From positions 1-64,000 of IMG/VR virus record IMGVR_UViG_3300017788_004205: 64,000 nucleotides of DNA. One strand, written 5' to 3'. A model generated the notes under the pieces. That model searched no databases. It saw only the letters and a program-made list of their open reading frames with translations, and was not told the origin of the DNA. Origin of the DNA: a virus. The position numbers and the translations under genes are program-made. Each line of letters begins with the position of its first letter. Position 1 is the stretch's first letter. Below, piece after piece: positions 18,929 to 64,000 of this stretch.

Positions 18929-18960
18929 GCCTGAGTAGTCTTTCGACTACTCAGGTTTTT
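18929..18960 (+). terminator. Intrinsic terminator
   Basis: CCTGAGTAGTC-TTTC-GACTACTCAGG perfect stem followed by T-tract. Confidence 0.85.
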
Positions 18961-28330: not shown

Positions 28331-28344
28331 TATTAAAAAAATTT

Positions 28345-28352
28345 GATATATA
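28345..28352 (+). promoter_or_regulatory. Putative late promoter GATATATA
   Basis: 24 nt upstream of ATG 28376. Confidence 0.65.
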
Positions 28353-28375
28353 GAGGTGAAATCTTAAATACCCAT

Positions 28376-37686: not shown

Positions 37687-37723
37687 ATTAAGATATATTT
37701 TCTGTATTTTTTAATTGAAAGCC

Positions 37724-46110: not shown

Positions 46111-46118
46111 GATATATA
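46111..46118 (+). promoter_or_regulatory. Putative late promoter GATATATA heading the cargo cluster
   Basis: 34 nt upstream of ATG 46152. Confidence 0.65.
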
Positions 46119-46151
46119 GAGATAGTTACAAAACATAAAAAATAATATTTT

Positions 46152-46616
46152 ATGAAAATCTTCGAGGAATACAAAAAAGACAAAGTGCATGAAGCCAAAG
46201 TATATGCTGGCGAACCTTTAAAAGAGGACATGGAAACTATCAAAAAGCATATAAATTCAGTCATTTTGAAGCCTTATAAGGTAAAAGCAGAGATATTTTC
46301 ACTGCATAGAGATTTTGGCGATTCTCAAACATTCATATCTAATCCCATAAGTGGAGCAGGTTTAGGTATATTCGGCCCAGCTATTGAGTATGTTCAATTA
46401 AATTTGGTTGTATCCAATCTGCCAAATAAATCAAATGCAAAAGAAATTGAGTTTTTGATTCGCTATACAACAAAAAGCAATTTGAATAACTCATTCCCAA
46501 GCGGTAAATATATTTTACAGGATGGGGTTATACAATTTGTAAGTTCAGAGGAAAACAAGCCTATTGAAGAAGTGGGTGAATCTAAATTTGCGGTTTCAAG
46601 CCACGATGAAATATAA
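46152..46616 (+). CDS. Putative internal head protein
   Basis: MKIFEEYKKDKVHE-A N-terminus. Confidence 0.55.
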   Translation: MKIFEEYKKDKVHEAKVYAGEPLKEDMETIKKHINSVILKPYKVKAEIFSLHRDFGDSQTFISNPISGAGLGIFGPAIEYVQLNLVVSNLPNKSNAKEIEFLIRYTTKSNLNNSFPSGKYILQDGVIQFVSSEENKPIEEVGESKFAVSSHDEI

Positions 46617-46628
46617 TTTTTTTATAAA

Positions 46629-48947
46629 ATGAGATATTCTAACATACACGAATCATTTTTTGACTTTTTGAGATTTGTATCAGACGATGAAGAAAAGAGA
46701 ATCATCCAAAGAGTGGATGAATACTTAAATAACAATCCTGATTTTACTTATGATATGGAGTTCAATCTTCCAGGTCTTTGTCCAATAGAAAGAATTGCAC
46801 AATCATTAGTAATCAATGAAGGAAAGCTTAGAAAGGTTTTGAAGAATGTAGCTAAAAAAACAAATAGTATAGGCATAGCATCAGTTAGTTCAAAAGTATG
46901 GTCTGGTGATGTTCTTATATCTCTTAGTTTAGATGGTAACTTTAAGTTGAAAGGAAGTTCTTATAAGAGAAGTGTAGTAAGAGAATCATCAAATGATTCA
47001 ATTTCTGATTCAGGTGCTTATTTGAATGAATCATTTCTTTCGGCTCTTAAAAAAACTTTTGGATTTGGGACTTCAATAGATAAAGAAGAATTAGATAATG
47101 CGGCATTGGAAGTTGTAAAATTTCTTTATGATAGACCAGTTTATGACTATCATAAGAAAAGTGCTACTCCTGGGTTGATTTTCCTTTCTTTATTGTCTGA
47201 GGATAAATATACAAGTATTCCTTTCAAAACATTAGAGGAACTATTCAAATCAGATGTTTTAGATAACTGTGAAGTTATTAAGTTCAAATATAAAGATATC
47301 GAAGGCCCTCTTGTGGTATTTGGAAAGCCAGAACTAAGTAGAAAAGAATACCTTGTAGAGCACACAGCAGATTTCACAGAAATGCTTCTCATAAAAGAAA
47401 TTCAAAGAAAACTTATAGAAAAAGGGTTCTTAAATGATTATAATGATGACTTTAGAAGAAGAAAAAGTTCAATATCAGGAGAACTCAGTAAAGCTACTAT
47501 AACAGCTATATTGAATTTCCAAGATAAGTATAAAATTCCAACCGTAAGAAGAGGTGATATAAATATAGAGACGCTTCGTAAACTTGGGGTTAACCTTTCA
47601 TTCTTGGGTATTGACTTAAATATAAGTGAAACACCATTAATTGAAAAGTTGAAAAAAGAAGCAGAGTCTATCGGTCTTTCTCTTGCATCAAAAACATCAA
47701 GTCAACCAAAAATCACATCAATTGATGCTCCAATCTATACAGAAGATGGTTCCGATGATTATGATGATTCTTATTCTGAATACTCTTCACCAGAAGAAGT
47801 TCAGACTTCATCGGTTGATGATGAAACACAACAACCAACTCAAAGAATAATACAAACTGCATCACAACAATCAACTGGAGGTCAAACTCCGCAATTTACT
47901 GTTGGTGGAATTGCAGAAAGTGGAGTGATTGTAGATAGATTATTGAACGAATGGGATATTGTTAAAAGTTATGTTGATTCTGTTCAGAACATGAATATAA
48001 AAACTGAAACTTCTATGTTATTGATGTCAGCTATTGGAGATAATTCTAAACTATCTGAATCAACTAAAAAAGAAGTTCTCTCAAAAGTTCTTTATTTCAT
48101 GTTACAAGGTAAGGGGGGTTTCTTCCAAAATGTGGGAGGATTTGATAAGTTTCAAGGTGATTTGAATTCTTTGGTAAGAATAGATTGGATAGGACTTAGA
48201 AGTAAATTAATTTCCTATATCAATAATCCAGAAAATGTCGCAAAGGATAAAACACAAGGAAAAGAAATTTCAGATTCGTTAAAAGTAGAGCTTCAAGCTA
48301 TTCTTTCTAATTATGGTATAACTCCTACATCATCATTTTCAAGTTTCACTTCTTTTGCAAAAAGAAAGGAAGAAATGGGTTCTACTACAACCCCTTTTGT
48401 GAATCCAGATTTAGATGACGATGACGATGATGATGAAATAGAAATTTCTACAGATATTGCTCCTGAGCCTCCTGTTGTTCCTTCTCAAAAAATAGAAAAT
48501 GAATCTGACCCACGACAAGATAAGATAAAGGTAGATTTTATCGTATCTAAATTGATGGATAAAAATATGTTTGATTTCTATAATTCATTGACTAAAGAAA
48601 TAAAAAATAAAGAGAAGATAAAATCTAAAGGAATGGCTCCTACTCTAAGACTTGCTATAAATAAGATATTTGGAGAGCAATCGAAATTAGAATCTATCCA
48701 GAAAGAATCTATTATTTCTGAGTTGTTAGATATGTTACTTAAAAATGATAGTCTTTTCTCCAAAAATATGGGAAAGGCTCCTTTCATAAAGAAATTCTTC
48801 ACTACAAATGAACTTGATAAGTTTAATCAAGTTGATTATAAGAATCTCAGCTCAACTTTGATAGATTTTATTCTTTTCTCCGAAATAGAAGTAGCGAATG
48901 AAATCACAGCTAAACTAAACAGTTTATATGCTAAATATAGTAGTTAA
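46629..48947 (+). CDS. Putative internal head protein with peptidoglycan-binding domain and duplicated helical domain
   Basis: IKEIQRKL...GELSKATITAILNFQ...GDINIETL; GDNSKLSESTKKEVL vs GEQSKLESIQKESII repeat; IHES/INEG/LNES sites. Confidence 0.6.
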   Translation: MRYSNIHESFFDFLRFVSDDEEKRIIQRVDEYLNNNPDFTYDMEFNLPGLCPIERIAQSLVINEGKLRKVLKNVAKKTNSIGIASVSSKVWSGDVLISLSLDGNFKLKGSSYKRSVVRESSNDSISDSGAYLNESFLSALKKTFGFGTSIDKEELDNAALEVVKFLYDRPVYDYHKKSATPGLIFLSLLSEDKYTSIPFKTLEELFKSDVLDNCEVIKFKYKDIEGPLVVFGKPELSRKEYLVEHTADFTEMLLIKEIQRKLIEKGFLNDYNDDFRRRKSSISGELSKATITAILNFQDKYKIPTVRRGDINIETLRKLGVNLSFLGIDLNISETPLIEKLKKEAESIGLSLASKTSSQPKITSIDAPIYTEDGSDDYDDSYSEYSSPEEVQTSSVDDETQQPTQRIIQTASQQSTGGQTPQFTVGGIAESGVIVDRLLNEWDIVKSYVDSVQNMNIKTETSMLLMSAIGDNSKLSESTKKEVLSKVLYFMLQGKGGFFQNVGGFDKFQGDLNSLVRIDWIGLRSKLISYINNPENVAKDKTQGKEISDSLKVELQAILSNYGITPTSSFSSFTSFAKRKEEMGSTTTPFVNPDLDDDDDDDEIEISTDIAPEPPVVPSQKIENESDPRQDKIKVDFIVSKLMDKNMFDFYNSLTKEIKNKEKIKSKGMAPTLRLAINKIFGEQSKLESIQKESIISELLDMLLKNDSLFSKNMGKAPFIKKFFTTNELDKFNQVDYKNLSSTLIDFILFSEIEVANEITAKLNSLYAKYSS

Positions 48948-49881
48948 AAAACCAAGAGATGTAGTTGATTATATTAGAAATGCTTCTACTGTAAAGGAAC
49001 GTTCTGATATTATTAAATATGTTAGTTCTAATTTTTTATCATACAAGACAGCAAGCGGAGAAATTCCGTTGAAGCTCGGGGATAAGAATCAAGATATTCA
49101 AGTTATCCAAAGTATTCTTGTAGGTTTGAATTTCTTAAAAGAAGAAGATTTAACAGGAGTTCTTGATGCTACTACAATGAAAGCTATAAAAAGATTGGGT
49201 TCACAATTCAAAATAGCTGTTGATGTTAATGCGCCTTTATCGAAGTCTATAATAGATTTATTTCTTAGGATGGAATATGGTCAGGATTACACACCTGGCA
49301 TGAAAGATATTCCAAAAGAAGCATATGCTGATAAATATAATTGGCCATCGAGACCAAGTGGACATAATCCACTTAAATACTCAGAAATTCAAAATATATT
49401 TGGAAAGATTGAATATGTTCCAACACATGGAAGATATATCAAGATAACAAATAACTTTATAAATGATAATATCATAAGTATAGAGATACCACAATTAGCT
49501 AAGATTGCAAATCCAAGAGGAACCAAAGTTAAATGTCATAGATTGATTGCAAATCAACTTAAAGCTCTTTGGGAGACTTGGGAAAAGGTTGGTCTTTTGA
49601 ATAGAGTTAAAACATATAATGGTCTTTTTGTCCAAAGATTTATGACTGGTACAAATAATACAAAATTAAGCTATCATTCATACGGAATCGCATTTGATAT
49701 AAATGCTGGAACAAATGGATATGGAGTAAATCCACCTGCTATTGGAGAAAAAGGTTCACTTAGAGAGCTTGTTCCTTATGCTATGGATTTAGGCTTTTTC
49801 TGGGGTGGTCATTTTAGAGGAAATAAAGATGGTATGCATTTCGAAGTATGCAAAATATTGAATCCAAATATTGTTGTTTAA
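48928..49881 (+). CDS. Peptidoglycan-binding domain + M15 metallopeptidase (M15C/D,D-carboxypeptidase-like)
   Basis: LKLGDKNQDIQVIQSIL...TGVLDATT; SYHSYGIAFD and DGMHFE zinc motifs. Confidence 0.85.
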   Translation: MLNIVVKKPRDVVDYIRNASTVKERSDIIKYVSSNFLSYKTASGEIPLKLGDKNQDIQVIQSILVGLNFLKEEDLTGVLDATTMKAIKRLGSQFKIAVDVNAPLSKSIIDLFLRMEYGQDYTPGMKDIPKEAYADKYNWPSRPSGHNPLKYSEIQNIFGKIEYVPTHGRYIKITNNFINDNIISIEIPQLAKIANPRGTKVKCHRLIANQLKALWETWEKVGLLNRVKTYNGLFVQRFMTGTNNTKLSYHSYGIAFDINAGTNGYGVNPPAIGEKGSLRELVPYAMDLGFFWGGHFRGNKDGMHFEVCKILNPNIVV

Positions 49882-49885
49882 TTTT

Positions 49886-50863
49886 ATGGAAAATAGAAGA
49901 ATACTTACATATGACAAATTCAATTTAAATGAAGTTCTAATAACAGGGCCAGAACAAGCTATTTCTATTATTTCCGCTGAGTCTGATAAGAGTGCTAAAA
50001 AGAGAATAATAAAAGAAATAGCGCAAGAATATTTCTCAGATGATTTGATTTTTGGTAGAACCCAACTTTCTTTGAATTCTCAAAGCCAAGATGTTTCTGT
50101 TTTACAAACAATACTTAAATCTCTCGGGTATTTGAAAAAGCATATAGTAGATGCGAAGATAGACCAAGAAACAATGATTGCAGTCCAATCGTTTGCAAAA
50201 GGTTTCGGGATTTCAGTTGATGTAAATCAGCCAATACCAGCTGATGTTATTAGAATACTAACAGAATTTGATTCTGCAAAGTATGATGAGATAGAAGCAA
50301 AAGAAACTCCTAAAAAAGAAATACAACAACCCTCGACTCCAACAACACTTTCTATCGTTATGCCACAATCTTCTGTTAATAGAGGAGAAGGTGCTAACTA
50401 TGGTGTTAATTTTCCAGACCAAAAATATGAGAATAAATATAAATTCTCCATTCAGTATAGTAAAGCAAAAGATGGTGAAAAAAATGTTTCTCCAAATTTT
50501 AAGGTAAAAGATTTTGCCTGTAAAGATGGCTCCGATGTTATACTTATAAACCCTTATTTAATTGAGCTTCTTGAAAAAATAAGAGCTCATTTTGGAAAGT
50601 CTTTGAACATAAATTCTGGATATAGAACCCCTCCATATAATAGAAAAATAGGAGGCGCTGGTATTTCTCAGCATATGTTTGGAAATGCAGCTGATTTTAG
50701 GATAGATGGAGTAACCCCTCTTCAAATATGTACATGGTTAAATACTTTTCATACAGGAGGCATAGGTCTTTATGTCACAAAAAACTTTACTCATGTAGAT
50801 GTTAGAAATGTTATTGGAACTGAAAAAGCCACATGGTCTAAACCGAAGAGCGTAAAGTTTTAA
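49886..50863 (+). CDS. Peptidoglycan-binding domain + M15A (Peptidase_M15_3) metallopeptidase
   Basis: DVSVLQTILKSLGY...DQETMIAVQSF; NFKVKDFACKDG, NSGYR, SQHMFGNAAD, FTHVD; likely ATG 49886. Confidence 0.88.
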   Translation: MENRRILTYDKFNLNEVLITGPEQAISIISAESDKSAKKRIIKEIAQEYFSDDLIFGRTQLSLNSQSQDVSVLQTILKSLGYLKKHIVDAKIDQETMIAVQSFAKGFGISVDVNQPIPADVIRILTEFDSAKYDEIEAKETPKKEIQQPSTPTTLSIVMPQSSVNRGEGANYGVNFPDQKYENKYKFSIQYSKAKDGEKNVSPNFKVKDFACKDGSDVILINPYLIELLEKIRAHFGKSLNINSGYRTPPYNRKIGGAGISQHMFGNAADFRIDGVTPLQICTWLNTFHTGGIGLYVTKNFTHVDVRNVIGTEKATWSKPKSVKF

Positions 50864-50887
50864 TAAACAAATAATAATAAGATATAT

Positions 50888-52141
50888 ATGATACATAACA
50901 TAAAAGGAAATACATTGAATACAGTAGACCCTATACTTTCTTTTAGAGACTTTATTACTTCCCAGAAGAGTCCGATTGGTCATTCTCATACTCTTATTGC
51001 AAATGAGTATATTCCAGTTGCTGAATCACTTTTAGAAAGTACCTTTATTCAATTGAATGAGGCACAAAAATGTATCTTAGAATTCATAAAAGAAAACAAA
51101 TTGAACCCTGAAAAGTGGATTTTGCTAAACGAAGATGATTATTACCAACGAGTTCAAGATTGGTTTAGTGAGAACTTTTTTAATCCTACTGAAAAGATTA
51201 TCAGTGGAGCTATTGAGTGGGTTAAAATATATGGTTCAAATTTGACAAATGCTGTTAGCGCTGTTGTTTCTAAATTTATGGAAAGCGTAAAAAATATTTG
51301 GGAAACAGTAAAAATAGATACAAACTCATGGTATCTTGGAAATAAATCTCTCAAAAGACAAGTTACAATGAGTATAAATCAGCAGTTCGGTGCAGTTGGT
51401 GAGTCATTAAATGAAAACTCTGAGGATTTTATATCGGAACTAACAAAAGAATCAAGTCAGCTTAACAATATGTTTGTAGAATCTGTTAAGAACATAGTAG
51501 AAGGAGAGTCTTTTGCTTCAAAGGTAACCATGTCTATAAATAAAATGCTGAATGAATCTAATAGCTATAATTATTCTTTTAATTCATCTTTGAATGGTAC
51601 AATTTCAGAACTTTTACCTAATGCTATAAAAGAAGGTGTTTTGAATGTAGAGCAATTTCCAATAGCATCTAAAAAAGGAAATATTAAAAGATTTGATGAG
51701 CATAATTCTGTTAATGAAGCATTTGAATTTATTGATAACTTTTTTAACTGGTGTGTATCAAAACTTGAAGTGCTTCCTCCATTTAGTTGGTTGAAAGAAT
51801 GGATGAATGAATTGGAAATTAAAAATAACTTAAACCAAACTCTTGAAGGTGCAAGTGCTTTTTTAACAAAATACTTTGGCATCCCAGGCCCTTATCAGTT
51901 TGAGAAATTAGACCCAATTTATTCTGTTATAATCACAGGATTGATAGACTTTGGTAAATATCAATTAGTCAATAAAGTTCTAACTGCCATTTTACCGTTT
52001 ATACCTATTGTTGGGCCTATTCTTTCGTTTATGCTTACTATTTATGGCTTCTTCATATTAGCTCAAATTATTTTTGAGCTTATTGAAAGTTTTAATGGTG
52101 GTGGAGATGAAACTTCAACTGAACCTCAACCTACAAATTAA
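50888..52141 (+). CDS. Putative internal head protein with C-terminal hydrophobic helices
   Basis: ILSFRDFI; several LNE/VNE sites; VLTAILPFIPIVGPILSFMLTIYGFFILAQIIF. Confidence 0.6.
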   Translation: MIHNIKGNTLNTVDPILSFRDFITSQKSPIGHSHTLIANEYIPVAESLLESTFIQLNEAQKCILEFIKENKLNPEKWILLNEDDYYQRVQDWFSENFFNPTEKIISGAIEWVKIYGSNLTNAVSAVVSKFMESVKNIWETVKIDTNSWYLGNKSLKRQVTMSINQQFGAVGESLNENSEDFISELTKESSQLNNMFVESVKNIVEGESFASKVTMSINKMLNESNSYNYSFNSSLNGTISELLPNAIKEGVLNVEQFPIASKKGNIKRFDEHNSVNEAFEFIDNFFNWCVSKLEVLPPFSWLKEWMNELEIKNNLNQTLEGASAFLTKYFGIPGPYQFEKLDPIYSVIITGLIDFGKYQLVNKVLTAILPFIPIVGPILSFMLTIYGFFILAQIIFELIESFNGGGDETSTEPQPTN

Positions 52142-52152
52142 TATTTTGATGT

Positions 52153-54093
52153 ATGATTACTAAATTTAACCAATATCAAAAACTTTTAGAAGATGAAATG
52201 ATTCAACCTATGTCTGCTGGTTCAGGTGGAAGTTGGATTGAAAAAGAATCTTTGAATAAAGGAGCCATTTCTGGTTACTTTGCCCGTAAAGCTAAGGCAA
52301 AGGCTGATTCTACTGTTACTACTCCAGAAGTGAAAGATGAAAAAACTGTTGTTGATGTTAAAACAGAAGAACAAATTCAAAACTATAGTCAACTATTAAC
52401 AGATACTCCAATCTTGAATATGTCAGCAAAGGCATATGCAAGTTTGAATGGTTTAACTCAAGATGGTAAAGAACTTGATTTAGAATTAGATGGAGATTTA
52501 ACAGAAGAAAGTGCTATGATTGATATTGCATATAAGTATTATATCAAGAATATCACAGATATTATTATGGATGTGCAAGACGCTCCAACTAATTATATGG
52601 TCGAAGAAGTTAGCCAAGATGTTCTGGTAAAACTAAATAATAACCCTATAACTATCGGGACTTTGATTGGGGGTGCTTTGACAGAATGGTTTGCGTCTAA
52701 GCAACCTATAAATAATTTGAATAGTTCTTTGGAATCGGCATATATTAGTCCAAAAGAAGGGTTGAGAGAATCATTTGGAATAGAAATGTATCCACTGAAT
52801 GAAAATTCTGGAAGAAGTGTAAAATTCATAACAAACCTTGTAAATAAATATCAAAAATTAGAAAAAGGAAGCGGTGTTACATCATCTTTAACTAAAGGTA
52901 AATTCGGTTCTGCTTTTTCTGGTTATACTCCAGTTTCAAGAAAATCTGGAATGAATTTAAGTTCTACTTTAGGTTCAGGTTCAGCTACAATGTCAAATCC
53001 TTCAGTAACAAGAGCTATTAATACTAAGATTCCAAAATCTTTGGATGATGTTAAGGATGTTGCAAATAAATTGTCCGCTGGAGGTAAAACCCCTAAAGCT
53101 GGTTTTTTGAAAGCCGCTGAAAACGCAATCAAGAACAGAACTTCAAACATAAACAGCAAGATACTTTCAGCCAAAAGTTTATTCAAATCGAATGTTATCT
53201 CTAAAACAATTGGACTCGTTTCTCTTTTTTATCTACCGAGCTTTGTTATGAATAAAGTTTTGGGTGAGTGGATGCGCTTTTTTGATTCTCCAAAAACAGG
53301 TGAAGAAAATGCAATAGACTTCTTAATGGCATTTGAAGAAGATATGGTATCAAGAGGATATTCTCCATTCAAAACCTATAATAAGATTTACAAAGATTAT
53401 CAATTTAATATTGATAAATATGGAAATAATTTCAAAGAAATAGTAGTTGGATGGTGTGAAAGTTTATACAATGCTAAAATCATAGATAATCAAATTTTTG
53501 ATATTTGTCAGCGCCAAATAAAAAGTGATGTTTTTGAAATATATATAAAAGAAAGCTCATATATTTCAAAAGAACTTTCTTCTTATTTAGAAAACAAATG
53601 GCAAAACAACATAACATTTCCTACTCCAACTTTAACAACATTTTCTACTATTGTGTTGTTTATTAGTTTATTGGAAAGATTTGAAGACCAATTTTATGAA
53701 GGTAAAATTCCTATTCAATTGCCTAAAGAACTTTCTGATATTAAAAGGTTCGATAAAGATGGAAATGAAAGAAATTATCTAACCATCGGAGATTCTGGTC
53801 AAGATGTTGTTATACTTCAAGATATGCTTAAAATGCTTGGATTGTATAGAGGAGAATCTGACGGAGTATATGATGAAGAAATTTCAAATCTAATTGAGGA
53901 TGTAAAGCAAAGAGCAAAGGTTTCAAACCCTGATGTTATAGTTGATGGTAATGCAGATAATGAAGCATTAGAATACATAGAAAAATTCCTCATTCTTAAA
54001 TCTGAAAAGGTTCAAGGAAATATTGGGGGCAGAATAAGCTCTCAAAAACAAGAACTGCGCTCTCAAGTCGCGAAGTCTCTTGATAATCGATAA
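52153..54093 (+). CDS. Putative internal head protein with C-terminal peptidoglycan-binding domain
   Basis: MITKFNQYQKLLE; LTIGDSGQDVVILQDMLKMLGLY..ESDGVYD...VDG. Confidence 0.65.
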   Translation: MITKFNQYQKLLEDEMIQPMSAGSGGSWIEKESLNKGAISGYFARKAKAKADSTVTTPEVKDEKTVVDVKTEEQIQNYSQLLTDTPILNMSAKAYASLNGLTQDGKELDLELDGDLTEESAMIDIAYKYYIKNITDIIMDVQDAPTNYMVEEVSQDVLVKLNNNPITIGTLIGGALTEWFASKQPINNLNSSLESAYISPKEGLRESFGIEMYPLNENSGRSVKFITNLVNKYQKLEKGSGVTSSLTKGKFGSAFSGYTPVSRKSGMNLSSTLGSGSATMSNPSVTRAINTKIPKSLDDVKDVANKLSAGGKTPKAGFLKAAENAIKNRTSNINSKILSAKSLFKSNVISKTIGLVSLFYLPSFVMNKVLGEWMRFFDSPKTGEENAIDFLMAFEEDMVSRGYSPFKTYNKIYKDYQFNIDKYGNNFKEIVVGWCESLYNAKIIDNQIFDICQRQIKSDVFEIYIKESSYISKELSSYLENKWQNNITFPTPTLTTFSTIVLFISLLERFEDQFYEGKIPIQLPKELSDIKRFDKDGNERNYLTIGDSGQDVVILQDMLKMLGLYRGESDGVYDEEISNLIEDVKQRAKVSNPDVIVDGNADNEALEYIEKFLILKSEKVQGNIGGRISSQKQELRSQVAKSLDNR

Positions 54094-54117
54094 TAATACA
54101 AAAAAACCAAAAAAGTT

Positions 54118-55572
54118 ATGCTGTTCAAAGGATTTTTACCAAATGTCAATCAGATACAGAAAGTAAATGAAAATGACAACAAAGACTTCTCAAAAGATGT
54201 TCAATTTTACAATGAAAGCTTTGATGGAGGTATTTTTAGAAAAAAAGCACAAGCCACATTAAATGAACTTACCCCTTATAATCTTTTGAGGGGCTTAGAG
54301 ATAGATACAGATTCTAAAGTTTATGCTAAACTTGCAGAAGATATGCCTACTTGTAAAGATGTTTTTGCTGAAAGTTCTGCTGAAAAACCTGTTGTTTCTC
54401 AAATTTTGATTACTCAATTAGATAAAGTTTCTGAAATGATAACACAGGTTAAGTCTGTTAATCCTGATTCTGAAGAATTTGATGCAATAGTATCCGCATC
54501 AAAGGATAAAATTAATATTCAAAAATTAAAAGCTATATTTAAAAGCATAAAGGATTTCGAAGGAGCAAGTGGAAATGTTGATTTTATAACATCACTGATT
54601 GTTGAATTAAAGAAAAAAATGCAAGGAGATAAAACTCCCCTTAAAGCAAAGGTATATGATGTTATAGATTCTAAAAATCTTGAAGAAATTGGATATGAAG
54701 ACATGACTACGAAATCCGTTAATTGGTTATCAGATGGAGGCGATATTGGGACTATGTTGTCTGATATGGATGCTATCCACAGAATAACCGCTTTCTTTGA
54801 GCTTTTAACTCCTCTTTTAAATATTAAAGGATTTGGATATATTCAATACAAAGAGAATAATGTTTACGATTATTTGAAATCTGGTTTAGACCTTGTAAAT
54901 ATTCTTTTAAACATCAAACTACCAGAAACAAGTTTTCAACAATATTCGGATTTGATTAAAGATATTGGTGCTAAAATTATAGCACCTGAAATAGATTTGC
55001 TTACAAGTAAATATGCAAAAAGCATTTATTTCCCAACTATTCAAACTCTTTATGTTTCTCTTTTATCTCTCTATACATTGAAAGTTATTAGTTCAAGTAT
55101 AACTTCTGTTGAAAAGAAAGAAGAAATAGCAAAAAAGGAAGAGGAAACAAAGAAAGCTGAGATGGCTAAAGAAGTTACTGCAAGCCAAGTTAACAGTAGC
55201 ATTAAAGCAATAGATACCTTGGATAAATCTGGATTCTTTACAAGTAAAAAAATATTTTACACTACACCAAAGAAAAAATATACTCCAGAAGAAAAGAAAA
55301 TGATTCCACAAATAAAGGAGTTTGTTACTACTCTCGGTTTAGTAAAAGACGCTGATGATAGTTGGAAAAAGGAAGAAAAATTCGATTCAATTCTTTCAGA
55401 TGCAGTTAAGAATTTCCAAGGTTCTATTCAAATAGATAAAAAAATATTAGCTGTTGATGGTAAAATAGGGCCAAACACAAGAAATGCAATGTTGGCTTAT
55501 TTAGAAGCTCTTAAGATGAAAACGGGAGTTGTTGCTTCCACTGATGTAAAAAAAACTAATCAGAGTACCTAA
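54118..55572 (+). CDS. Putative internal head protein (family A) with C-terminal peptidoglycan-binding domain
   Basis: DAVKNFQ...VDGKIGPNT; SIYFPTIQTLYVSLLSL similar to 56342/61099. Confidence 0.65.
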   Translation: MLFKGFLPNVNQIQKVNENDNKDFSKDVQFYNESFDGGIFRKKAQATLNELTPYNLLRGLEIDTDSKVYAKLAEDMPTCKDVFAESSAEKPVVSQILITQLDKVSEMITQVKSVNPDSEEFDAIVSASKDKINIQKLKAIFKSIKDFEGASGNVDFITSLIVELKKKMQGDKTPLKAKVYDVIDSKNLEEIGYEDMTTKSVNWLSDGGDIGTMLSDMDAIHRITAFFELLTPLLNIKGFGYIQYKENNVYDYLKSGLDLVNILLNIKLPETSFQQYSDLIKDIGAKIIAPEIDLLTSKYAKSIYFPTIQTLYVSLLSLYTLKVISSSITSVEKKEEIAKKEEETKKAEMAKEVTASQVNSSIKAIDTLDKSGFFTSKKIFYTTPKKKYTPEEKKMIPQIKEFVTTLGLVKDADDSWKKEEKFDSILSDAVKNFQGSIQIDKKILAVDGKIGPNTRNAMLAYLEALKMKTGVVASTDVKKTNQST

Positions 55573-55650
55573 TCTCTAATAAAGAATTTTAAGAGAAGGT
55601 TAGCGGGTGTGTTTTACAACACATTTTAAATTAAAAAAACAAAAAGACAA

Positions 55651-56274
55651 ATGAAAATTCGCAATTTCAACGACTTTATATTAAATGAACAATCACTTTT
55701 TGAAGAAGGTGTTAAATCATCTAATCCTGAATTAACATCTAAGTTAGTTCAACTATTGGATGAAAAAAGTGAAGATGTAAATACAATCAAAGGATTGATT
55801 AACAGAGGTGCTGATATTAACGCAGTTGATACAGAAAAAGGAGCGAGCGTTCTTCATTTTGCGGCTATGCTGAACAGTGTAGATTTGGTGGACTTTTGCT
55901 TGAAAAAGGGAATCCCTGTTGATGTTAAAAGTAAAGCTAAAGCCACGCCTCTTCATTGGGCATGCACCAATAAAGCTTTAGAAGCTGTTCAATTCCTTAT
56001 AAAAAATGGAGCAGATGTAGAGGCTGTAGATGAAAATGGGATGACAGCATTGCATCATGCTTCTTATACGAATTCGATTGCAGTTGCAAAATATCTTGTT
56101 TCAATTGGAGCAAATCCAAATGCGGAAGATAAAAATGGTAAAACTCCTATTGAATTAGCAATGGAAGAAAAAGCAAAAGGGACCGTTAAAGCCCTTTCTT
56201 CTTCTGTTGATTTTTCTAACTTTGAATTTGAAGGAAAAGTTTATGATTTTTCAAAACTTATACCTCAAACTTAA
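55651..56274 (+). CDS. Ankyrin repeat protein with capsid-targeting-like N-terminus
   Basis: GASVLHFAA, ATPLHWAC, GMTALHHAS, GKTPIELA with GAD/GAN turns; MKIRNFNDFILNE. Confidence 0.9.
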   Translation: MKIRNFNDFILNEQSLFEEGVKSSNPELTSKLVQLLDEKSEDVNTIKGLINRGADINAVDTEKGASVLHFAAMLNSVDLVDFCLKKGIPVDVKSKAKATPLHWACTNKALEAVQFLIKNGADVEAVDENGMTALHHASYTNSIAVAKYLVSIGANPNAEDKNGKTPIELAMEEKAKGTVKALSSSVDFSNFEFEGKVYDFSKLIPQT

Positions 56275-56306
56275 TGCTTAAAATTGAAAAAGGAATTTCA
56301 ATTTTC

Positions 56307-56314
56307 GATATATA
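56307..56314 (+). promoter_or_regulatory. Putative late promoter GATATATA
   Basis: 28 nt upstream of ATG 56342. Confidence 0.65.
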
Positions 56315-56341
56315 CTAAGAGATAAAAAATACAAGTAAATC

Positions 56342-57829
56342 ATGCTATTTAGAAACTTAAATTTTGACAAAAAAGCCCAAAATATATCAGAAGGAAATTT
56401 TATTTCTGCTGATTTTCTGGGGATTTTTGATAGTGATGCAAAATCTAAACTCGCAAATCTTACAATAGATAAGATGTTTGAGGGGTTAGATTTAGAAAAA
56501 AGTGCAGAATTGCATGATTTTATTGAAGCATACGCCCCTTCTTTGAAAGCACAGCCTGCTACAAGCACAACTCCTTCTATAACCGATGCTATGGGATTGC
56601 AAAATTCTAAAAAAAGTGTTTTCGAGCTTATTAACTCTCAATTACACTATATGCAATTAAGATTAGAAGGTGTAGAAAGGGAACTTGATAAATTTTACAA
56701 AGACATTGAAACAGCTTATAGTAAAACAATATCCAAAGAAGAATTAGAAGGTTCTGTATCTGGTTTTACAAGCCCAGAAAATATAGCATCTATAATACCT
56801 AAGATTAATTCTATTGTAGAAGAAGCGATAAAAACAGGTCTTGTAAATTTTGAAAATTCAAGCACAAAGCAAGCATTTTTAACTCTGCATAAGTTAAAAA
56901 TTAGCAGTTATATTTTTGCATTAAGAGAGAATATATTAAATGATGCTAAAAATGTTAGCATTTTACCACTATACAGAAAAATAGATTCTCTTGATTTAGA
57001 AGAAATCACAGCAGAAAACGCGATGCTTTCTGAAATAAAGTCTTATATGGACAATCCTCTTGATATATCGGGGATGTATAAATCATTTGACCCAATCGCA
57101 AGAATTTCAGCTTTCTTGGAAGAATCGTTGATGCAATACGAATATGGTATTGACTTGAGGAAAACATTTGGCTCGAATTATACGGAAACATTCAATAATT
57201 CAGAGGCATTGTCAACAGGAGTTTTAAGAAAGTTTGTGAAGACAATAGATATTAGTGTTTTTGAGCCATTACAAGAACTCTTGTATGATGTTGCTCTTAC
57301 ACTTATCCAAAGAGTTTATGCCCAAAATACTGATGAAGATGATAAGAATATATTTGTTCCTTCTCTTCAGTTCATGTATCTTTCTATGATTTCTCTTCTT
57401 GCATTTAAGCTTATTGATTATAATCTTAAAGTTAAAACAGCTTCTATCCAAAGAGAAGAAAGAATCAAAGCTGAACAACAAGCGGCAGTTGTTGAAGACA
57501 AGAAATCAAGAGCGATGAAATTATATGATACATACAAGCAATTGAATGCTTTGAACTTCTTCAAAAAGGGCGGTCTTGTTTACAAGAAAGAATCAAATAG
57601 AATGCTTCCAGAGATTGTTAAGTTGATTAATAACTTCTTTGTTTATGCAGGAGACCTTGATAAATCTAAATTAGATAGTCCTACTTTTGATGATATGACT
57701 TATCAAGCTGTGTTGAAGTTTCAAACAGAAACTGAATGCAATCTCAAAGACGGCAAAATAGGAAATGAAACAAGAGGAAGAATGCAGGGAATTGCAGAAG
57801 CAACAGCATCATCTTATAGCATTGTGTAA
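56342..57829 (+). CDS. Putative internal head protein (family A), C-terminal peptidoglycan-binding domain
   Basis: Paralog of 61099-62523; FDDMTYQAVLKFQ...DGKIGNET. Confidence 0.7.
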   Translation: MLFRNLNFDKKAQNISEGNFISADFLGIFDSDAKSKLANLTIDKMFEGLDLEKSAELHDFIEAYAPSLKAQPATSTTPSITDAMGLQNSKKSVFELINSQLHYMQLRLEGVERELDKFYKDIETAYSKTISKEELEGSVSGFTSPENIASIIPKINSIVEEAIKTGLVNFENSSTKQAFLTLHKLKISSYIFALRENILNDAKNVSILPLYRKIDSLDLEEITAENAMLSEIKSYMDNPLDISGMYKSFDPIARISAFLEESLMQYEYGIDLRKTFGSNYTETFNNSEALSTGVLRKFVKTIDISVFEPLQELLYDVALTLIQRVYAQNTDEDDKNIFVPSLQFMYLSMISLLAFKLIDYNLKVKTASIQREERIKAEQQAAVVEDKKSRAMKLYDTYKQLNALNFFKKGGLVYKKESNRMLPEIVKLINNFFVYAGDLDKSKLDSPTFDDMTYQAVLKFQTETECNLKDGKIGNETRGRMQGIAEATASSYSIV

Positions 57830-57862
57830 TTCTCAAATATCCAGAAAAAAATAAATAGTCTT

Positions 57863-58780
57863 ATGGAAAATAAAGTATTTAAATATCTGAATTTTATAGA
57901 ACCTAAGGAACCATCAAGTATATCATTTTATGATAATCTCAATGAGTCCAATATTTATAATACAGAATCCTATAAATGGGCATATAAAGATATTAATTTA
58001 GAAAATTTTGATACAAAATACACCAGTATTTTCTACAATTCCCTTTCTAAGCTCCTCTACGGTGAGTCTGGTAAACCAGAAGAGCCTAAATTCGGGCCAG
58101 GGTATGAACAGAGTAAGTCTAAATTGGAAAAAACACAAAAGCTTTTTTCTCTTATATGGAACAATGCAAAAAGCGCAATCAATAAACTTTTACAGGATAA
58201 TAAAACTATTTTTCCTAAAAGTATAATAGATGAAATTAGCAAATTAGAATATAATTTACCAAAAGATTTTACAAGTTCGGATTATATATTCGATAGACTT
58301 AAAAATAATAATCTGGATGGTTTCCCAGAAAACTTAAAGTCTAAAATTAACAAAATTCAGATAAATACTAATGAACTGAAAAATTATTCTATTGGTATTT
58401 ATGAATCAGTTACAAATAGCAATAAAGATAATTTTAACAAAAATATATCAACAACATTAGGCAATGACGTTAAGAATATAGTAGAAAAGTTGAAGAAAGT
58501 CTATTTTCCAAATCTTCAAAATTACTCTTCGATAGAAAGTGAAATGAAGGATACTTTCTCATCATTATATGTTGATTGTTACCTTTATACTTTATCAAAC
58601 TCTATCTTCAATTATAAGAAAGGTTCTTCTGATATCGTTAAAAAACAAGATGCTTCTACTGAAGTTAAAAAAACAGTTTCGCGTAAGTCGAGTGGAGCAA
58701 CTAAAAGAGAACAAGCATCTTCTAAACAATTATCAAAGGATGATTGGACAAATATATTGAAGAAAAGGGGATTACTTTAA
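57863..58780 (+). CDS. Putative internal head protein
   Basis: KVFKYLNFIE...LNES; weak similarity to neighbours (KLLYG, VYFPNLQ). Confidence 0.6.
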   Translation: MENKVFKYLNFIEPKEPSSISFYDNLNESNIYNTESYKWAYKDINLENFDTKYTSIFYNSLSKLLYGESGKPEEPKFGPGYEQSKSKLEKTQKLFSLIWNNAKSAINKLLQDNKTIFPKSIIDEISKLEYNLPKDFTSSDYIFDRLKNNNLDGFPENLKSKINKIQINTNELKNYSIGIYESVTNSNKDNFNKNISTTLGNDVKNIVEKLKKVYFPNLQNYSSIESEMKDTFSSLYVDCYLYTLSNSIFNYKKGSSDIVKKQDASTEVKKTVSRKSSGATKREQASSKQLSKDDWTNILKKRGLL

Positions 58781-58807
58781 TTCAAAAATTAAAAATAAAA
58801 AAATATC

Positions 58808-59932: not shown

Positions 59933-59938
59933 AATAGG

Positions 59939-61084
59939 ATGATAACTAATTATAGCGATTTTGTATTAAACGAAGGTTATACTAATCCTCAAAAGGTTTA
60001 TACAATAGATAAGATAAAACTTAGAACTCAGGGTGAGTATTTAGCTAATCCTTCTCTTATAGATGAAGATATAGCTAAGTTTAGAAACTTATCGGAACTC
60101 ATAAATTTAGATGATATTTTAAGAAAAAAAGATTATAGTAAATATTCATCCGCACTAAAAGAATTTATCAAAACGAAAGCATATAATAAGTTAGTAGAGG
60201 TAATGTATGGTAAGGGATATAATAATCCAGAAAAAGATTCTACAGAAATAATAGTAGGATTAGACCCATCTTCAATGGCTTCTGCTATGAAATATGGCTC
60301 TACTCCAAAAACTATTAAAATGACTCGCGGAGAATACTTCAAAAAAGTTTGGGCAAGAGTTGATGAATATTGTGATAATTCTGTTGAATTTTTACAAAAA
60401 GGCATAATAGAAGATACATTAGGGGATTTTGTAGATTATAGTAAAAACATACTTTTAATAATACTCGCGGCTGTTATTATCTATTTCGGGGCAAAGGCTA
60501 TGGCAGTAGGAGCATCTGGAGTTGTAACTTTTGCGTCATCTACCACAGGTCTTTCTGCTATACGTAACATAATATTAAATGCAGGAGTTAAGTCAATGCC
60601 CTTTGTTGAAAAGTGCTCCTTGGCTATACAGAGACTTGTATCTAATCCTAAAACTTGGATGAGTTTAGCATCATGGGAAATATTTGATGCGGCTCCTAAA
60701 ATAATAGAAATGTTTTCGTCTAATGATGCTGACGTTTTGCTACAACTCGATGAAGAACATATTTTAGAAAAACTCTCAGAAAAAAACAAAAAAGTACAGA
60801 TAGCAAAAATCAAGAAAGCATTGGAAGAGCATTCTGACTTCAATGTTAAACCATTTTTAGACGGCCCAGTTCAAGTATGGCAAGATGCATTTCAAAGGAT
60901 GCCAGGGTGGGAAGCATGGTCTCAAAAAGAAGGTAAATCTATAAACAACAATCCACAAAATCTTGGTTATATATTTACATATTACATAGCTTTATACGCA
61001 TATCAATTTCAACTATTTATTTGGAAATACAATTATCTGCTAACATTAAAAGAAGGTAGAGATGTTGATTTTTCAAAACTTTAA
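59939..61084 (+). CDS. Putative internal head protein (family B) with hydrophobic helices
   Basis: MITNYSDFVLNE-G; ILLIILAAVIIYFGA; LEEHSDF, MPGW, NLGYIFTYYI. Confidence 0.65.
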   Translation: MITNYSDFVLNEGYTNPQKVYTIDKIKLRTQGEYLANPSLIDEDIAKFRNLSELINLDDILRKKDYSKYSSALKEFIKTKAYNKLVEVMYGKGYNNPEKDSTEIIVGLDPSSMASAMKYGSTPKTIKMTRGEYFKKVWARVDEYCDNSVEFLQKGIIEDTLGDFVDYSKNILLIILAAVIIYFGAKAMAVGASGVVTFASSTTGLSAIRNIILNAGVKSMPFVEKCSLAIQRLVSNPKTWMSLASWEIFDAAPKIIEMFSSNDADVLLQLDEEHILEKLSEKNKKVQIAKIKKALEEHSDFNVKPFLDGPVQVWQDAFQRMPGWEAWSQKEGKSINNNPQNLGYIFTYYIALYAYQFQLFIWKYNYLLTLKEGRDVDFSKL

Positions 61085-61098
61085 AATAAGAACTAACA

Positions 61099-62523
61099 AT
61101 GCTCTACAGACCTATCCATCCAAATAAAAAAGAAGATATTAACAGAGTAGATGAGAGTAATTTTATCTCTTCTGATATGTTAGGTATATTTGATTCAGAT
61201 GCAAGAGTTAAATTAAGTGCTCTCACAATAGATAAATTATTTGAAGGATTAGATATAGATAATTCAAATGAAATTCATAGTTTCATTACTTCATTTGCTC
61301 CTTCCTTATCAAAAGTTATGGGAGTTTATAGTTCAGAGTCTAACTATGCATTCGAGATTCTAAAGGCTCAACTGATGTATATGCAAACTATTTTGCAAGA
61401 TGTTGAGAATGATATAGATTCTTTTTACAAGAATGTAATTAATGTTCACAAAAGCTATACAGACGGCCAAACAATAGAAACTCTTGTTGCTAAGTATAGC
61501 AATCCAAATAGTGTTGGTTCTATTTTCCCTGAGGTTGAAAAAATAGTTAAACAAGCAAAGAAATCAGGAGTTGATTTTAATAACCCAAGAGTTAAAGAAA
61601 CATTCAAAACTCTTCAAAAGTTGAATGTTAGCACTTATATTAGTCAAACCCTAAGTTCAATTGAAGTTTCAGCTTCAAATGTAAGTTTGCTTCCTCTTTA
61701 CAAGAAGATAGATGGAATGAATTTAGAAGAAATCACGGGAGATAATGCAATCGCTCCTCAAAACAAGAGTCATTTGTTTTTAACTCTTGATTTCAATTCT
61801 ATGTATACTTCTTTAGACCCAATTGCAAGACTGGGAGCTTTCTTTGAAGAAACTTTATTGCAATATCCATTCGGAAGACAATTAAAGAAGAATTTCGGAG
61901 ACGAGTATGAGTATTTTGATACTATTGAACATAGCATGTCTGCTATAAAACAATTTGTTCCTTCGGTTGATTATACTGTATTTGAACCGATGAAAGAAAT
62001 GCTTTATGAAATTAGTGCTTTATTGGTAAATCGAGTGTTTTCAATGCACCCAGAAGAAGATTCTAAGAATATATTCGTTCCTTCTTTTCAAGTTATGTGG
62101 GTGAGTATATTATCTCTTTTAGCTTTAAGACTCATTAACTTTAATGTTAGAGTTTCAAATGTTATTACTCAAAAAAAGGAAGAGAAAAAAGAACTAAAAT
62201 CCGAAAAAGCATCTGAATTAACTCAAGCTTATGAAACTCTAAAGCAACAAAACTTCTTTACAGACAAAATTACCTATAAAGAAGGTGATGCGACAATGAA
62301 TCCAGAGATAATCAAAAATATAAATAATATCTTAGTTAAGTTGACAATACTTCCAGATTCTAAGATTAATTCTACGCAGTATGATAGTCAAACAGCGGAA
62401 GCTATTAGAACACTTCAAATGAATCATTCTGCTGAATTTGTTGATGGGAAGATAGGTCAAGAAACAAAAGAAATTATGGAAAAGATTATCAATCACATAC
62501 AAAATAAATATAAAATGTCTTGA
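61099..62523 (+). CDS. Putative internal head protein (family A), C-terminal peptidoglycan-binding domain
   Basis: Paralog of 56342-57829; YDSQTAEAIRTLQ...VDGKIGQET. Confidence 0.7.
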   Translation: MLYRPIHPNKKEDINRVDESNFISSDMLGIFDSDARVKLSALTIDKLFEGLDIDNSNEIHSFITSFAPSLSKVMGVYSSESNYAFEILKAQLMYMQTILQDVENDIDSFYKNVINVHKSYTDGQTIETLVAKYSNPNSVGSIFPEVEKIVKQAKKSGVDFNNPRVKETFKTLQKLNVSTYISQTLSSIEVSASNVSLLPLYKKIDGMNLEEITGDNAIAPQNKSHLFLTLDFNSMYTSLDPIARLGAFFEETLLQYPFGRQLKKNFGDEYEYFDTIEHSMSAIKQFVPSVDYTVFEPMKEMLYEISALLVNRVFSMHPEEDSKNIFVPSFQVMWVSILSLLALRLINFNVRVSNVITQKKEEKKELKSEKASELTQAYETLKQQNFFTDKITYKEGDATMNPEIIKNINNILVKLTILPDSKINSTQYDSQTAEAIRTLQMNHSAEFVDGKIGQETKEIMEKIINHIQNKYKMS

Positions 62524-62525
62524 AA

Positions 62526-63620
62526 ATGGAAAACAAAAAAAGAATACTCAATTTTCAGAATTTTGTAATCAATGAAAGTTCATTACATGAGTCTAATACA
62601 GTAGATATCCCAGATTCAGAAATTTCAAAGATTCTTGATAGAGATATGACAACATATCTAAAAGGTCGTATGTGGGAAAAAAGTATTGAAGTTTTTTTTG
62701 GTAAAGATTATCTTAAAAAACCAGGTTTCAATCCAGAGAAAGATACTACTCCTATTACCGTAGATAATTGGATTTCAGGCAATGTATCGATTGATGCTGG
62801 TGGGTTTTTTAGAGATTCTTGGCAAGAGACTGACCAATTTTGCAATAGAGCAGTTGAGCTTGTAAAGACAGGTGAGTTATCAGATTTCTTAGGTAAAATT
62901 GCAGTCCCAGCTGGTTGGGCTGGAATAACCGCTGCAACAGTAGCGGGTCTTATAGCTATTGGTGGGATTGCTATTCCAAGTGCTACTATTGCTTCTGGCT
63001 TTATAGGAGCGACAGGAGGATTAGGATGGGGTGCAATAGCAATTAACACATCTGCGCTTGGTTCATTAGCTCTTAATTTAGCCCCTTTATTTTCGGATAA
63101 TCCAAAGATTGACCCAAGTCTTCAAAGAATAGCAAAGATGGTTATTAACAAAGAAGAAACTATAAAAGAATTTCAAAATGCTTTACAAGAACATTCTGAT
63201 TTTGAAGCAGATTGGGGTCTTGATAATTGGTTATCAGGAATAGATGAGATGCCAGGATGGTCAAAAAGCACTTGGAAAGAAAAAGGAGCAGATAATATAG
63301 GCTATCTCTTTACTTATTGGATTTCTTATTATTCTTATATTTACTTAAAAACAAAATTTGGAGCTTCTGTTGCTCAGGCTATAAAAAACTTTGAACAGGG
63401 TGGCGGTTCTGTTAAATTGATTGATAAGCCATTTGAAATCAATCAAAAAACATCAATAGAGCCCATTTCTAAGCCTTCTGAGGGGACTTCAGGTTCTACT
63501 CCTATAAATTCTCAAGTTCAAGCACAAGGAAGCCCTGTGGCGACCGCAGATGCCTCAAATTGGGTTAAAAAGAGAGAAGTTACCGTCAATGACGAAGTTC
63601 TTTCAAAATATGGATTCTGA
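62526..63620 (+). CDS. Putative internal head protein (family B) with long Gly/Ala hydrophobic segment
   Basis: MENKKRILNFQNFVINES; AGWAGITAATVAGLIAIGGIAI...; LQEHSDF, MPGW, NIGYLFTYWI; likely ATG 62526. Confidence 0.65.
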   Translation: MENKKRILNFQNFVINESSLHESNTVDIPDSEISKILDRDMTTYLKGRMWEKSIEVFFGKDYLKKPGFNPEKDTTPITVDNWISGNVSIDAGGFFRDSWQETDQFCNRAVELVKTGELSDFLGKIAVPAGWAGITAATVAGLIAIGGIAIPSATIASGFIGATGGLGWGAIAINTSALGSLALNLAPLFSDNPKIDPSLQRIAKMVINKEETIKEFQNALQEHSDFEADWGLDNWLSGIDEMPGWSKSTWKEKGADNIGYLFTYWISYYSYIYLKTKFGASVAQAIKNFEQGGGSVKLIDKPFEINQKTSIEPISKPSEGTSGSTPINSQVQAQGSPVATADASNWVKKREVTVNDEVLSKYGF

Positions 63621-63672
63621 TACATTAAAACTTATTTTTTTAACATTATTCGTAATGTAGGTTTTAATTTTA

Positions 63673-63680
63673 GATATATA
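63673..63680 (+). promoter_or_regulatory. Putative late promoter GATATATA
   Basis: 26 nt upstream of GTG 63706. Confidence 0.65.
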
Positions 63681-63705
63681 GAGTAAATCAAAATTTTGAA
63701 AAAGC

Positions 63706-64000
63706 GTGATTACAAAGTTCGACATATATTCAAATAATAAACTGAATGAGATAGCTGGTATTTATGATGGTTATTATGGGACAACTCTAAAAGATTTTAG
63801 AATGTCCGATTTATACCAAATTACAGCTCTTTCGGCTCAATCTACCATTGAAATCTTCAATGGTAATGATACATTTCAAACCGCACTTCTTCCTACATCT
63901 TCACTTTGGAATATGATTGATGTTGGTTATAAATCATGTACTACTGGTATGCTTTCCTTACTTAAAGCAAATTTCAAGAAATCTGATATAGAAGCGTTTG
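63706..64000 (+). CDS. Putative internal head protein, 3' truncated (absent from ORF track)
   Basis: GTG ATT ACA AAG TTC... translates MITKFDIYSNNKLNEIAG... and stays open to the window end. Confidence 0.65.
   Translation, partial: MITKFDIYSNNKLNEIAGIYDGYYGTTLKDFRMSDLYQITALSAQSTIEIFNGNDTFQTALLPTSSLWNMIDVGYKSCTTGMLSLLKANFKKSDIEAF

Follow-up and report, generated by a model that had tools for sequence, protein, structure and literature searches.

In the ejectosomes of podoviruses, the T7 protein gp16 has a wall-cutting domain of the lytic transglycosylase type, and segments of the ejection proteins enter membranes. In phage T4, the first 10 residues of the internal protein IPIII suffice for head loading; positions 4 and 7 of the T4 leader have a part in targeting, positions 8 and 10 in processing, and the protease gp21 cuts after L/I-X-E (PMC9026906). 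Many proteins are also packaged by giant phiKZ-like phages; a diverged gp21-type protease trims them after Glu, and they are passed on to the host (PMC9026906). Here, we analyse an array of genes downstream of the portal gene in a 64,000-nucleotide (nt) stretch of viral DNA (positions 1-64,000 of the IMG/VR record IMGVR_UViG_3300017788_004205; hereafter, the window), which is the first 64 kb of a contig of 86.8 kb. We propose that the array probably encodes late capsid cargo, that is, internal proteins of a large, uncultured T4-type phage from freshwater that would be loaded into the head and trimmed by a protease. This reading agrees with the packaged proteins suggested by the initial annotation of the window, and the evidence for it is indirect and drawn from sequence: the grammar of the leaders and the invariance of their Glu, the head-gene context, a late sigma factor with its putative promoter motifs, and a prohead protease in a relative.

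The array consists of 16 co-oriented genes on the + strand (contig positions 46152-65455, ~19 kb), which are separated by short gaps, and no credible opposite-strand gene was found between these limits. We designate genes by their first nucleotide (Table 1). Fifteen of the genes lie within the window, the number given in the initial annotation, and the ORF (open reading frame) calls from 46152 to the window edge are all on the + strand. The suggestion that the array runs past the window edge was also borne out, as its fifteenth gene ends at 64986 and is followed by a sixteenth leader-bearing ORF. The start of gene 48928 overlaps the end of gene 46629 by 20 nt (48928-48947). Together, the array products, which range from 152 to 772 amino acids (aa), sum to 713 kDa.

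Many of the array products begin with a capsid-targeting-like leader of the form [FY]xx[FY], a few residues, and [LIV]xE (for example, MKIRNFNDFILNE, MITNYSDFVLNE and RILNFQNFVINE), in which the residue preceding the Glu is often Asn (LNE, INE, VNE). A strict version of this pattern, [FYW]xx[FYW]x(0-5)[LIVM]xE within the first 28 residues, occurs at 14 of the 88 ORF N-termini of the contig, whereas 1.9 per cent of windows taken from inside these proteins match (P = 1.6e-9), and the array is enriched in such leaders (9 of 16 genes vs 5 of the 72 other contig ORFs; Fisher P = 2.6e-5). Among 10 T4 head proteins, used as a control, the pattern picks only IPII and IPIII, which in the T4 record begin with MKTYQEFIAE; IPI begins with MKTFKEF...ITE. 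Three further array genes, those of family A (see below), have a variant, MLFxNF ... [LIV]xE, that is akin to this IPI layout. The description of the targeting peptide as present on nearly all of the products therefore holds for the nine strict and the three variant leaders, but was too generous for the remaining genes, to which we return below. Because the codons of the leaders vary from gene to gene, the motif is selected at the protein level, and we ruled out that the leader is a repeated DNA cassette.

Orthologues keep the leader pattern, although the bodies of the proteins are 26-52 per cent identical, compared to about 84 per cent for the portal and 84-85 per cent for gp4. Specifically, the first 20 residues of the 46629 product are 61 per cent identical to those of its orthologues and the remainder 26 per cent; the leader of 52153 is kept in front of a body that is 29 per cent identical; the leader of 49886 is retained as F[VN]LNE; and 50888, which has the aromatic half of the leader alone, has orthologues that keep ILNFxxY. 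The same pattern of constraint is seen in two families of paralogues within the array, family A (54118, 56342 and 61099) and family B (59939 and 62526). In family A, with the layout MLFKNF ... [LIV]xE/[GS]NF (here and below, a slash marks the putative cut after Glu), residue E17 is invariant in an alignment of 26 sequences, and distant members of the family retain a hydrophobic-x-Glu just before the conserved core. Of 12 family B sequences, all have M1, I2, F8 and E12, and nearly all have L10 and N11, whereas the next 60 residues vary freely.

The array is preceded by genes for a gp4-like head completion protein, a gp2-like DNA end protector and a T4-type portal, and its first gene, 46152, occupies the T4 gp67/gp68 position. 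This gene is 77-81 per cent identical in relatives and its product has no Pfam or PHROG match. An octamer, GATATATA, is found in 23 copies in the window compared to 4.3 expected, and 15 of the 24 + strand copies on the contig end 20-60 nt before the start of a + strand ORF (expected, 3.45 per cent; P ~ 1e-16). The late promoter motif of T4 is TATAAATA, from which GATATATA differs; the likely reader of GATATATA is the gp55-type sigma factor encoded by 14079. The enrichment and positioning of the motif agree with the promoters proposed initially for the array, but only three array sites are in promoter position, and the array would thus correspond to approximately three late units rather than to 15 promoters. 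An additional copy at 50881 overlaps the ATG of gene 50888. The block shows no enrichment in sigma-70 promoters (75 vs 84.6 expected).

Relatives of the phage supply the head-maturation genes expected for such a system. Close relatives in IMG/VR (L001-L011, contigs up to 200 kb) have portals that are 82-85 per cent identical, and in a broad IMG/VR clade, one member of which (G003) is a complete genome of 256 kb that has terminal repeats, portals are ~40 per cent identical. In one relative with an 85 per cent identical portal (G001), a Peptidase_S77 (gp21-type) domain (46 bits; protease at contig 166459-168477) adjoins a gp23-type major capsid protein (MCP), whose N-terminus, MQVLNE/A, has the same [LIV]-N-E signature as many of the leaders; Peptidase_S77 is above the cut-off in three distant relatives as well. 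From G001, we infer a prohead protease for the phage studied here. In the distant clade, gene order is that of T4: portal, a small MKTIKTFEQFISE/A protein in the position of gene 46152, the S77 ORF, and a gp23-type MCP, with no array genes near the portal; the complete G003 genome has no match to the peptidoglycan (PG)-binding family PF01471. In the clade of the window, in contrast, the protease-capsid pair lies ~85 kb away, and the array fills the place after the portal and 46152. As to synteny across relatives, which had been suggested as a check, the content of the array varies even among close relatives. In G001, for example, the array has a single family A gene, and a family A and a family B gene are paired at another locus; the G001 orthologues of 63706 and 64997 are 68 and 67 per cent identical, respectively.

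Behind the leaders, the bodies carry parts that suggest contact with the cell envelope. PG_binding_1 domains were identified in seven genes (48928, 49886, 52153, 54118, 56342, 61099 and 63706) by Pfam searches and six-frame searches with PF01471; 49886, 52153, 61099 and 63706 score above the curated cut-off of PF01471, and 48928, 54118 and 56342 below it, with E-values up to 3e-4. For 48928, the PG-binding part reaches 18 bits in the six-frame search and E = 2e-7 with a local hidden Markov model (HMM). Six of the seven PG-binding genes named initially are recovered in this way; 46629 is not supported (local HMM E = 0.03), and 63706 takes its place as the seventh. Five of the seven proteins are without any hydrolase domain. 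The other two are the two M15 peptidases of the initial annotation, both recognized by Pfam (M15_4 in 48928, 57.3 bits; M15_3 in 49886, 78.6 bits), which have the wall-binding N-terminal part in common, indicating paralogy. In 49886, SQHMFGNAAD aligns with SRHMYGHAAD of the zinc DD-peptidase 1LBU (motif SxHxxGxAAD), which points to a functional enzyme; only for 49886 was the zinc motif observed in an alignment, its equivalent in 48928 being a reading of the sequence by eye. Kyte-Doolittle profiles show membrane-grade helices in five genes (50888, 59939, 62526, 56342 and 61099), embedded in proteins of 366-495 aa, and none of the array proteins has a signal-peptide-like N-terminus. The hydrophobic helices without signal peptides that had been noted in 50888, 59939 and 62526 were therefore confirmed, that of 58808 is weak (Kyte-Doolittle 1.05), and those of 56342 and 61099 are additional.

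Families A and B appear to be new protein families confined to this lineage. Neither has a tblastn match in GenBank phages, and a profile search of 1.84 billion representatives returned only some 25-30 full-length family A clusters. In the AF2 model of the 56342 product, residues 1-33 are disordered and a helix (residues 340-403) lies ahead of the C-terminal domain, which superposes on PG-binding domains (Z = 11.3 with CtpB, 10.2 with SleB and 8.9 with phiKZ gp144). For the fold of the family A N-terminal domain, Foldseek searches of the PDB and BFVD and a wide VIA-align search gave nothing above the helical background. The AF2 model of family B is poor (predicted local distance difference test [pLDDT] 55.8) and leaves the hydrophobic insert unmodelled, and the ESM Atlas gave no usable lead for this family. 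A weak PHROG match (E = 0.0044) of family B to tape measure proteins was put down to composition and rejected.

Taken together, these features make head packaging of the array proteins plausible. In the mechanism that we envisage, the leader, with its two aromatic residues three apart followed by [LIV]-x-Glu, would dock the products into the scaffolding core of the prohead, and a gp21-type (S77) prohead protease would cut after the leader Glu. The mature proteins would stay in the filled head, exit through the portal and tail at infection, and at the entry point cut the wall locally, anchor to it, or help to form or hold a path for the DNA. Since the proteins combine PG_binding_1 and M15 domains with membrane-grade helices and have no signal peptides, their most likely site of action would be the wall and inner membrane of the host at entry. 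Ejection and breaching of the envelope, like the DNA conduit, entry compartment or superinfection barrier of the initial annotation, are conjectural at this stage. The ankyrin-repeat protein of the array and the leader-tagged enzymes outside it indicate that the cargo would not be purely envelope-directed.

Several points weigh against head-loaded cargo of this kind. The S77 protease and MCP genes were not found on the 87-kb fragment itself, which is 31 per cent complete by the CheckV estimate. The products of 46629, 50888 and 57863 have only the aromatic half of the leader, without a canonical cut site, and 48928 has no leader; moreover, [LIV]xE is short and common, so that only its conservation counts. 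In the literature, we found neither a published case of a T4-type phage with wall-binding or wall-cutting proteins in its head nor a description of such cargo behind a T4-type leader. A further difficulty is that proteins leaving the tail tube would have to be retained in the periplasm. Finally, all characterized T4 internal proteins act in the cytoplasm (PMC3012670, PMC9026906), and the combination of M15 and PG_binding_1 is also the standard architecture of endolysins, as which PHROGs label both the peptidase and the PG-binding parts.

This last point leads to a different view of the locus, in which the array proteins are not packaged and form a late envelope or lysis set of endolysins, holin- or spanin-like proteins, regulators and wall remodellers that reach the wall from the inside at the end of infection, the conserved N-terminus having some other purpose. 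The genes do appear to be late, and the hydrophobic helix, long charged helix and wall-binding domain of family A could form a membrane-anchored periplasmic arm. Yet 16 genes over 19 kb, mostly encoding proteins of 300-770 aa, are far beyond any known lysis cassette; the block, whose ORFs encode 152-772 aa, contains no small holin-like ORFs; it sits among head genes; its leaders follow the head-loading grammar of T4 with an invariant Glu; and a leader-tagged ankyrin protein has no place in lysis. Lysin candidates also exist off the array, namely the M15_4 peptidase encoded at contig 83600 and, in G001, a member of the T4 lysozyme family, and the array peptidases are therefore not needed as endolysin. 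We therefore regard a lysis set as unlikely. An improbable alternative, in our estimate, is that the array encodes only a prohead core or scaffold, which would build and size a very large capsid and then be degraded or inert, its wall-related folds being reused for protein contacts. Such a role would fit the start of the block, which is where T4 has gp67, gp68, gp21 and gp22, the relocation of the protease-MCP pair 85 kb away in this clade, the good conservation of 46152, as in a structural core protein, and the length and acidity (pI 5.0) of the 46629 product, as T4 scaffold proteins are described. It does not sit well with a PG_binding_1 fold this close to bona fide wall-binding domains (Z up to 11.3) or with the zinc motif of 49886. 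In addition, divergence is far faster in the bodies than in the portal, and close relatives differ in gene content, which better fits a host-facing role, and the distant clade builds T4-type heads without any of these genes.

Less probable still, we think, is capsid cargo that acts mainly in the cytoplasm as anti-defence or takeover effectors, in the manner of T4 IPI and Alt, with wall domains that are incidental or have other binding roles. The cytoplasmic action of the T4 internal proteins speaks for it, as do the ankyrin protein, the leader-tagged phosphoribosyltransferase 70209 and ORF 28343 elsewhere on the contig, and a fast divergence that fits an arms race, but action on cytoplasmic targets would not readily account for seven PG_binding_1 domains, two M15 peptidases and five proteins with membrane-grade helices.

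Within the preferred reading of head-loaded cargo, we tentatively raise a further possibility, which we would not yet favour: that a contractile, T4-type huge phage releases capsid-held wall-cutting, anchoring and membrane-inserting tools into the periplasm, where they would assemble a path or anchor for a very long genome and thus form an ejectosome-like device that arose independently of podoviruses. An equally speculative component of this idea is that cargo can be swapped in behind the shared head-loading leader, with rapid remodelling from one close relative to the next. If the reading of head-loaded, envelope-directed cargo is right, the T4 load-then-clip system would have been scaled up from a few small cytoplasmic effectors to a large, fast-evolving envelope kit, blurring the textbook split between podoviruses, which eject envelope-spanning core proteins, and myoviruses, which use the tail tip, and suggesting how entry is achieved by phages whose genomes measure 250-350 kb. 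The leader with [LIV]-N-E would also offer a simple rule for predicting virion cargo in metagenomic T4-type phages.

Table 1. Features of the array and of the surrounding contig. Window and contig numbering coincide; the slash marks the putative cut after Glu.
Feature	Coordinates	Strand	Basis or remark
gp55-type late sigma factor	14079-14423	+	phrog_234, E 2.9e-15
IF3-like translation initiation factor	18960-19478	-	36-43% identical to IF3 of Planctomycetota and other metagenome-assembled genomes (MAGs)
Collagen triple-helix protein, 666 aa	23783-25783	+	Pfam Collagen E 9.3e-50; GATATATA motif upstream at 23739
ORF with leader grammar	28343-29827	+	
Family-2 glycosyltransferase	37715-38965	+	Pfam E 2.6e-17; 81-84% identical in relatives
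gp4-like head completion protein	43242-43733	+	phmmer with T4 gp4, E 2e-21
gp2-like DNA end protector	43750-44373	+	phmmer with T4 gp2, E 2.4e-7
T4-type portal (gp20)	44391-46040	+	Pfam Portal_T4 E 4.8e-68; T4 gp20 phmmer E 3.8e-30
GATATATA late-promoter-like motif	46111-46118	+	34 nt before gene 46152
Leader-bearing 154-aa protein, T4 gp67/gp68 position	46152-46616	+	strict leader match, MKIFEEYKKDKVHE/A
Acidic 772-aa protein (pI 5.0), N-terminus SFFDFL conserved	46629-48947	+	no canonical cut site
PG-binding domain and M15_4 peptidase, no recognizable leader	48928-49881	+	Peptidase_M15_4 E 2.4e-15
Leader ILTYDKFNLNE/, PG_binding_1 and M15_3	49886-50863	+	M15_3 E 4.6e-22; PG_binding_1 23.6 bits
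417-aa protein, two C-terminal hydrophobic helices (about 360-399)	50888-52141	+	Kyte-Doolittle maximum 2.22
646-aa protein, leader MITKFNQYQKLLE/, C-terminal PG_binding_1	52153-54093	+	Pfam 21.3 bits; six-frame 24.5 bits
Family A paralogue	54118-55572	+	disordered propeptide, helical domain, hydrophobic helix, coiled helix, PG_binding_1
Leader-tagged ankyrin-repeat protein, MKIRNFNDFILNE/	55651-56274	+	Pfam Ank E 2e-27; strict leader match
GATATATA late-promoter-like motif	56307-56314	+	28 nt before gene 56342
Family A paralogue, modelled by AF2	56342-57829	+	mean pLDDT 81.5
305-aa protein of no known family	57863-58780	+	partial leader FKYLNFIEPKE
374-aa protein, leader MIIEFSKFASLKE/, weakly hydrophobic segment	58808-59932	+	leader match; hydropathy
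Family B paralogue, leader MITNYSDFVLNE/, central hydrophobic insert	59939-61084	+	Kyte-Doolittle maximum 2.43
Family A paralogue with PG_binding_1	61099-62523	+	Pfam 26.1 bits; 40% identical to 56342
Family B paralogue, leader RILNFQNFVINE/, Gly/Ala-rich hydrophobic insert	62526-63620	+	paralogy, conservation, hydropathy
GATATATA late-promoter-like motif	63673-63680	+	26 nt before gene 63706
426-aa gene, leader MITKFDIYSNNKLNE/, PG_binding_1	63706-64986 (window part to 64000)	+	Pfam 36.6 bits
152-aa leader-bearing ORF, end of array	64997-65455	+	leader
Leader-tagged phosphoribosyltransferase-domain protein, MRNFKEFISYIGE	70209-70898	-	Pfam Pribosyltran E 1.2e-9
ORF with leader grammar	72468-73889	-	
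ORF with leader grammar	82534-83367	+	
Third M15_4 peptidase, candidate endolysin	83600-84220	+	49% identical to 48928 catalytic half; no PG-binding domain

The G+C content of the window is ~31 per cent, and near-identical DNA has been seen in freshwater, drinking-water and wastewater metagenomes of several studies; none of the sequencing runs listed as carrying the stretch is an RNA run. The array block has no nucleotide match in GenBank phages, in which the closest portals (33-39 per cent identity) are those of uncultured huge phages (LR7565xx) and Lak megaphages. The gp4-like gene, 82-87 per cent identical in close relatives, matches a TnsA-like N fold in Pfam. A contractile tail, which the initial annotation implied by calling the phage myovirus-type, is suggested by the T4-type head genes and a 'tail sheath stabilizer' match on the contig (E = 3.6e-6), while searches of the 87-kb fragment with Pfam Phage_sheath_1 and Gp5_OB gave no match. 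The 46629 product has no Pfam or PHROG match, and we rejected it as a degenerate protease or scaffold protein because it is not similar to any of the relatives' S77 ORFs.

Outside the array, leader grammar is also found in ORFs such as the four listed in Table 1, including the phosphoribosyltransferase-domain protein, and head loading may therefore extend to enzymes. The IF3-like gene fits the translation genes reported in huge phages; as a pointer to the host, through its identity to IF3 of Planctomycetota MAGs, we set it aside, as the pattern-seeded scan was too weak and too biased. The collagen-repeat product may be a fibre or decoration protein, and the genes around the glycosyltransferase, upstream of the portal, are unannotated and possibly structural. 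In G001, the position directly upstream of the protease and MCP genes, an unusual one for an endolysin, is taken by a gene (contig 168648-169532, - strand) whose 294-aa product has a T4-lysozyme-family domain (95.7 bits) at its C-terminus. Elsewhere in G001 (L136:972-5492 and L136:30-6251) are a tandem family of ~190-aa proteins that, in contrast to the array proteins, have clear signal-peptide-like N-termini, three ~242-aa paralogues starting with MKYLKLFENWLNE that are interleaved with it and, in the same region, a PG-binding protein of 333 aa whose N-terminus forms a membrane anchor.

Among the systems with which the array can be compared, the proteins of podovirus ejectosomes (T7 gp14, gp15 and gp16; P22 gp7, gp16 and gp20) are head-internal, leave first and work in the envelope, as the array proteins would. 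The likeness is one of analogy: neither Pfam nor PHROGs links any array protein to the ejection proteins of T7 or P22, and the family A fold search gave only PG-binding domains with confidence. Unlike in podoviruses, whose short, non-contractile tails cannot span the envelope, the array enzymes belong to the M15 peptidases and not to the transglycosylases, and there is no sign of a stoichiometric core complex. The phage is apparently T4-type and contractile-tailed, and no need for an ejectosome is known in such phages. The ejection (E) or inner-body proteins of phiKZ, 201phi2-1 and SPN3US resemble the array in being numerous and in falling partly into paralogue families, but they are cut at S/A-x-E rather than [LIV]xE, and phiKZ-type cargo consists of a virion RNA polymerase and inner-body proteins, which are not wall-binding and to which no homology of the array was found. 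The superposition of the family A C-terminal domain on the binding domain of phiKZ gp144 (see above) concerns that domain. Genes 48928 and 49886 share the two-domain layout of 1LBU-type M15 and PG_binding_1 hydrolases (Streptomyces albus); in contrast to endolysins and virion-associated hydrolases, 49886 has a head-loading leader, and most of the PG-binding array proteins have no hydrolase domain.

The closest correspondence is with T4, whose IPI, IPII, IPIII and Alt have, like the array products, leaders of ~10-20 residues with aromatics three apart and an [L/I]-x-E site in front of otherwise unrelated, fast-diverging bodies. The two phages also share a T4-type portal, gp4- and gp2-like genes and a gp55-type sigma factor, with S77 and gp23-type MCP genes present in a close relative of the phage studied here. 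The internal proteins of T4, however, are few, small, soluble and encoded by scattered genes, whereas here 16 genes form one block after the portal, and, unlike T4 cargo, their products have bodies with wall-binding, wall-cutting and membrane-type parts.

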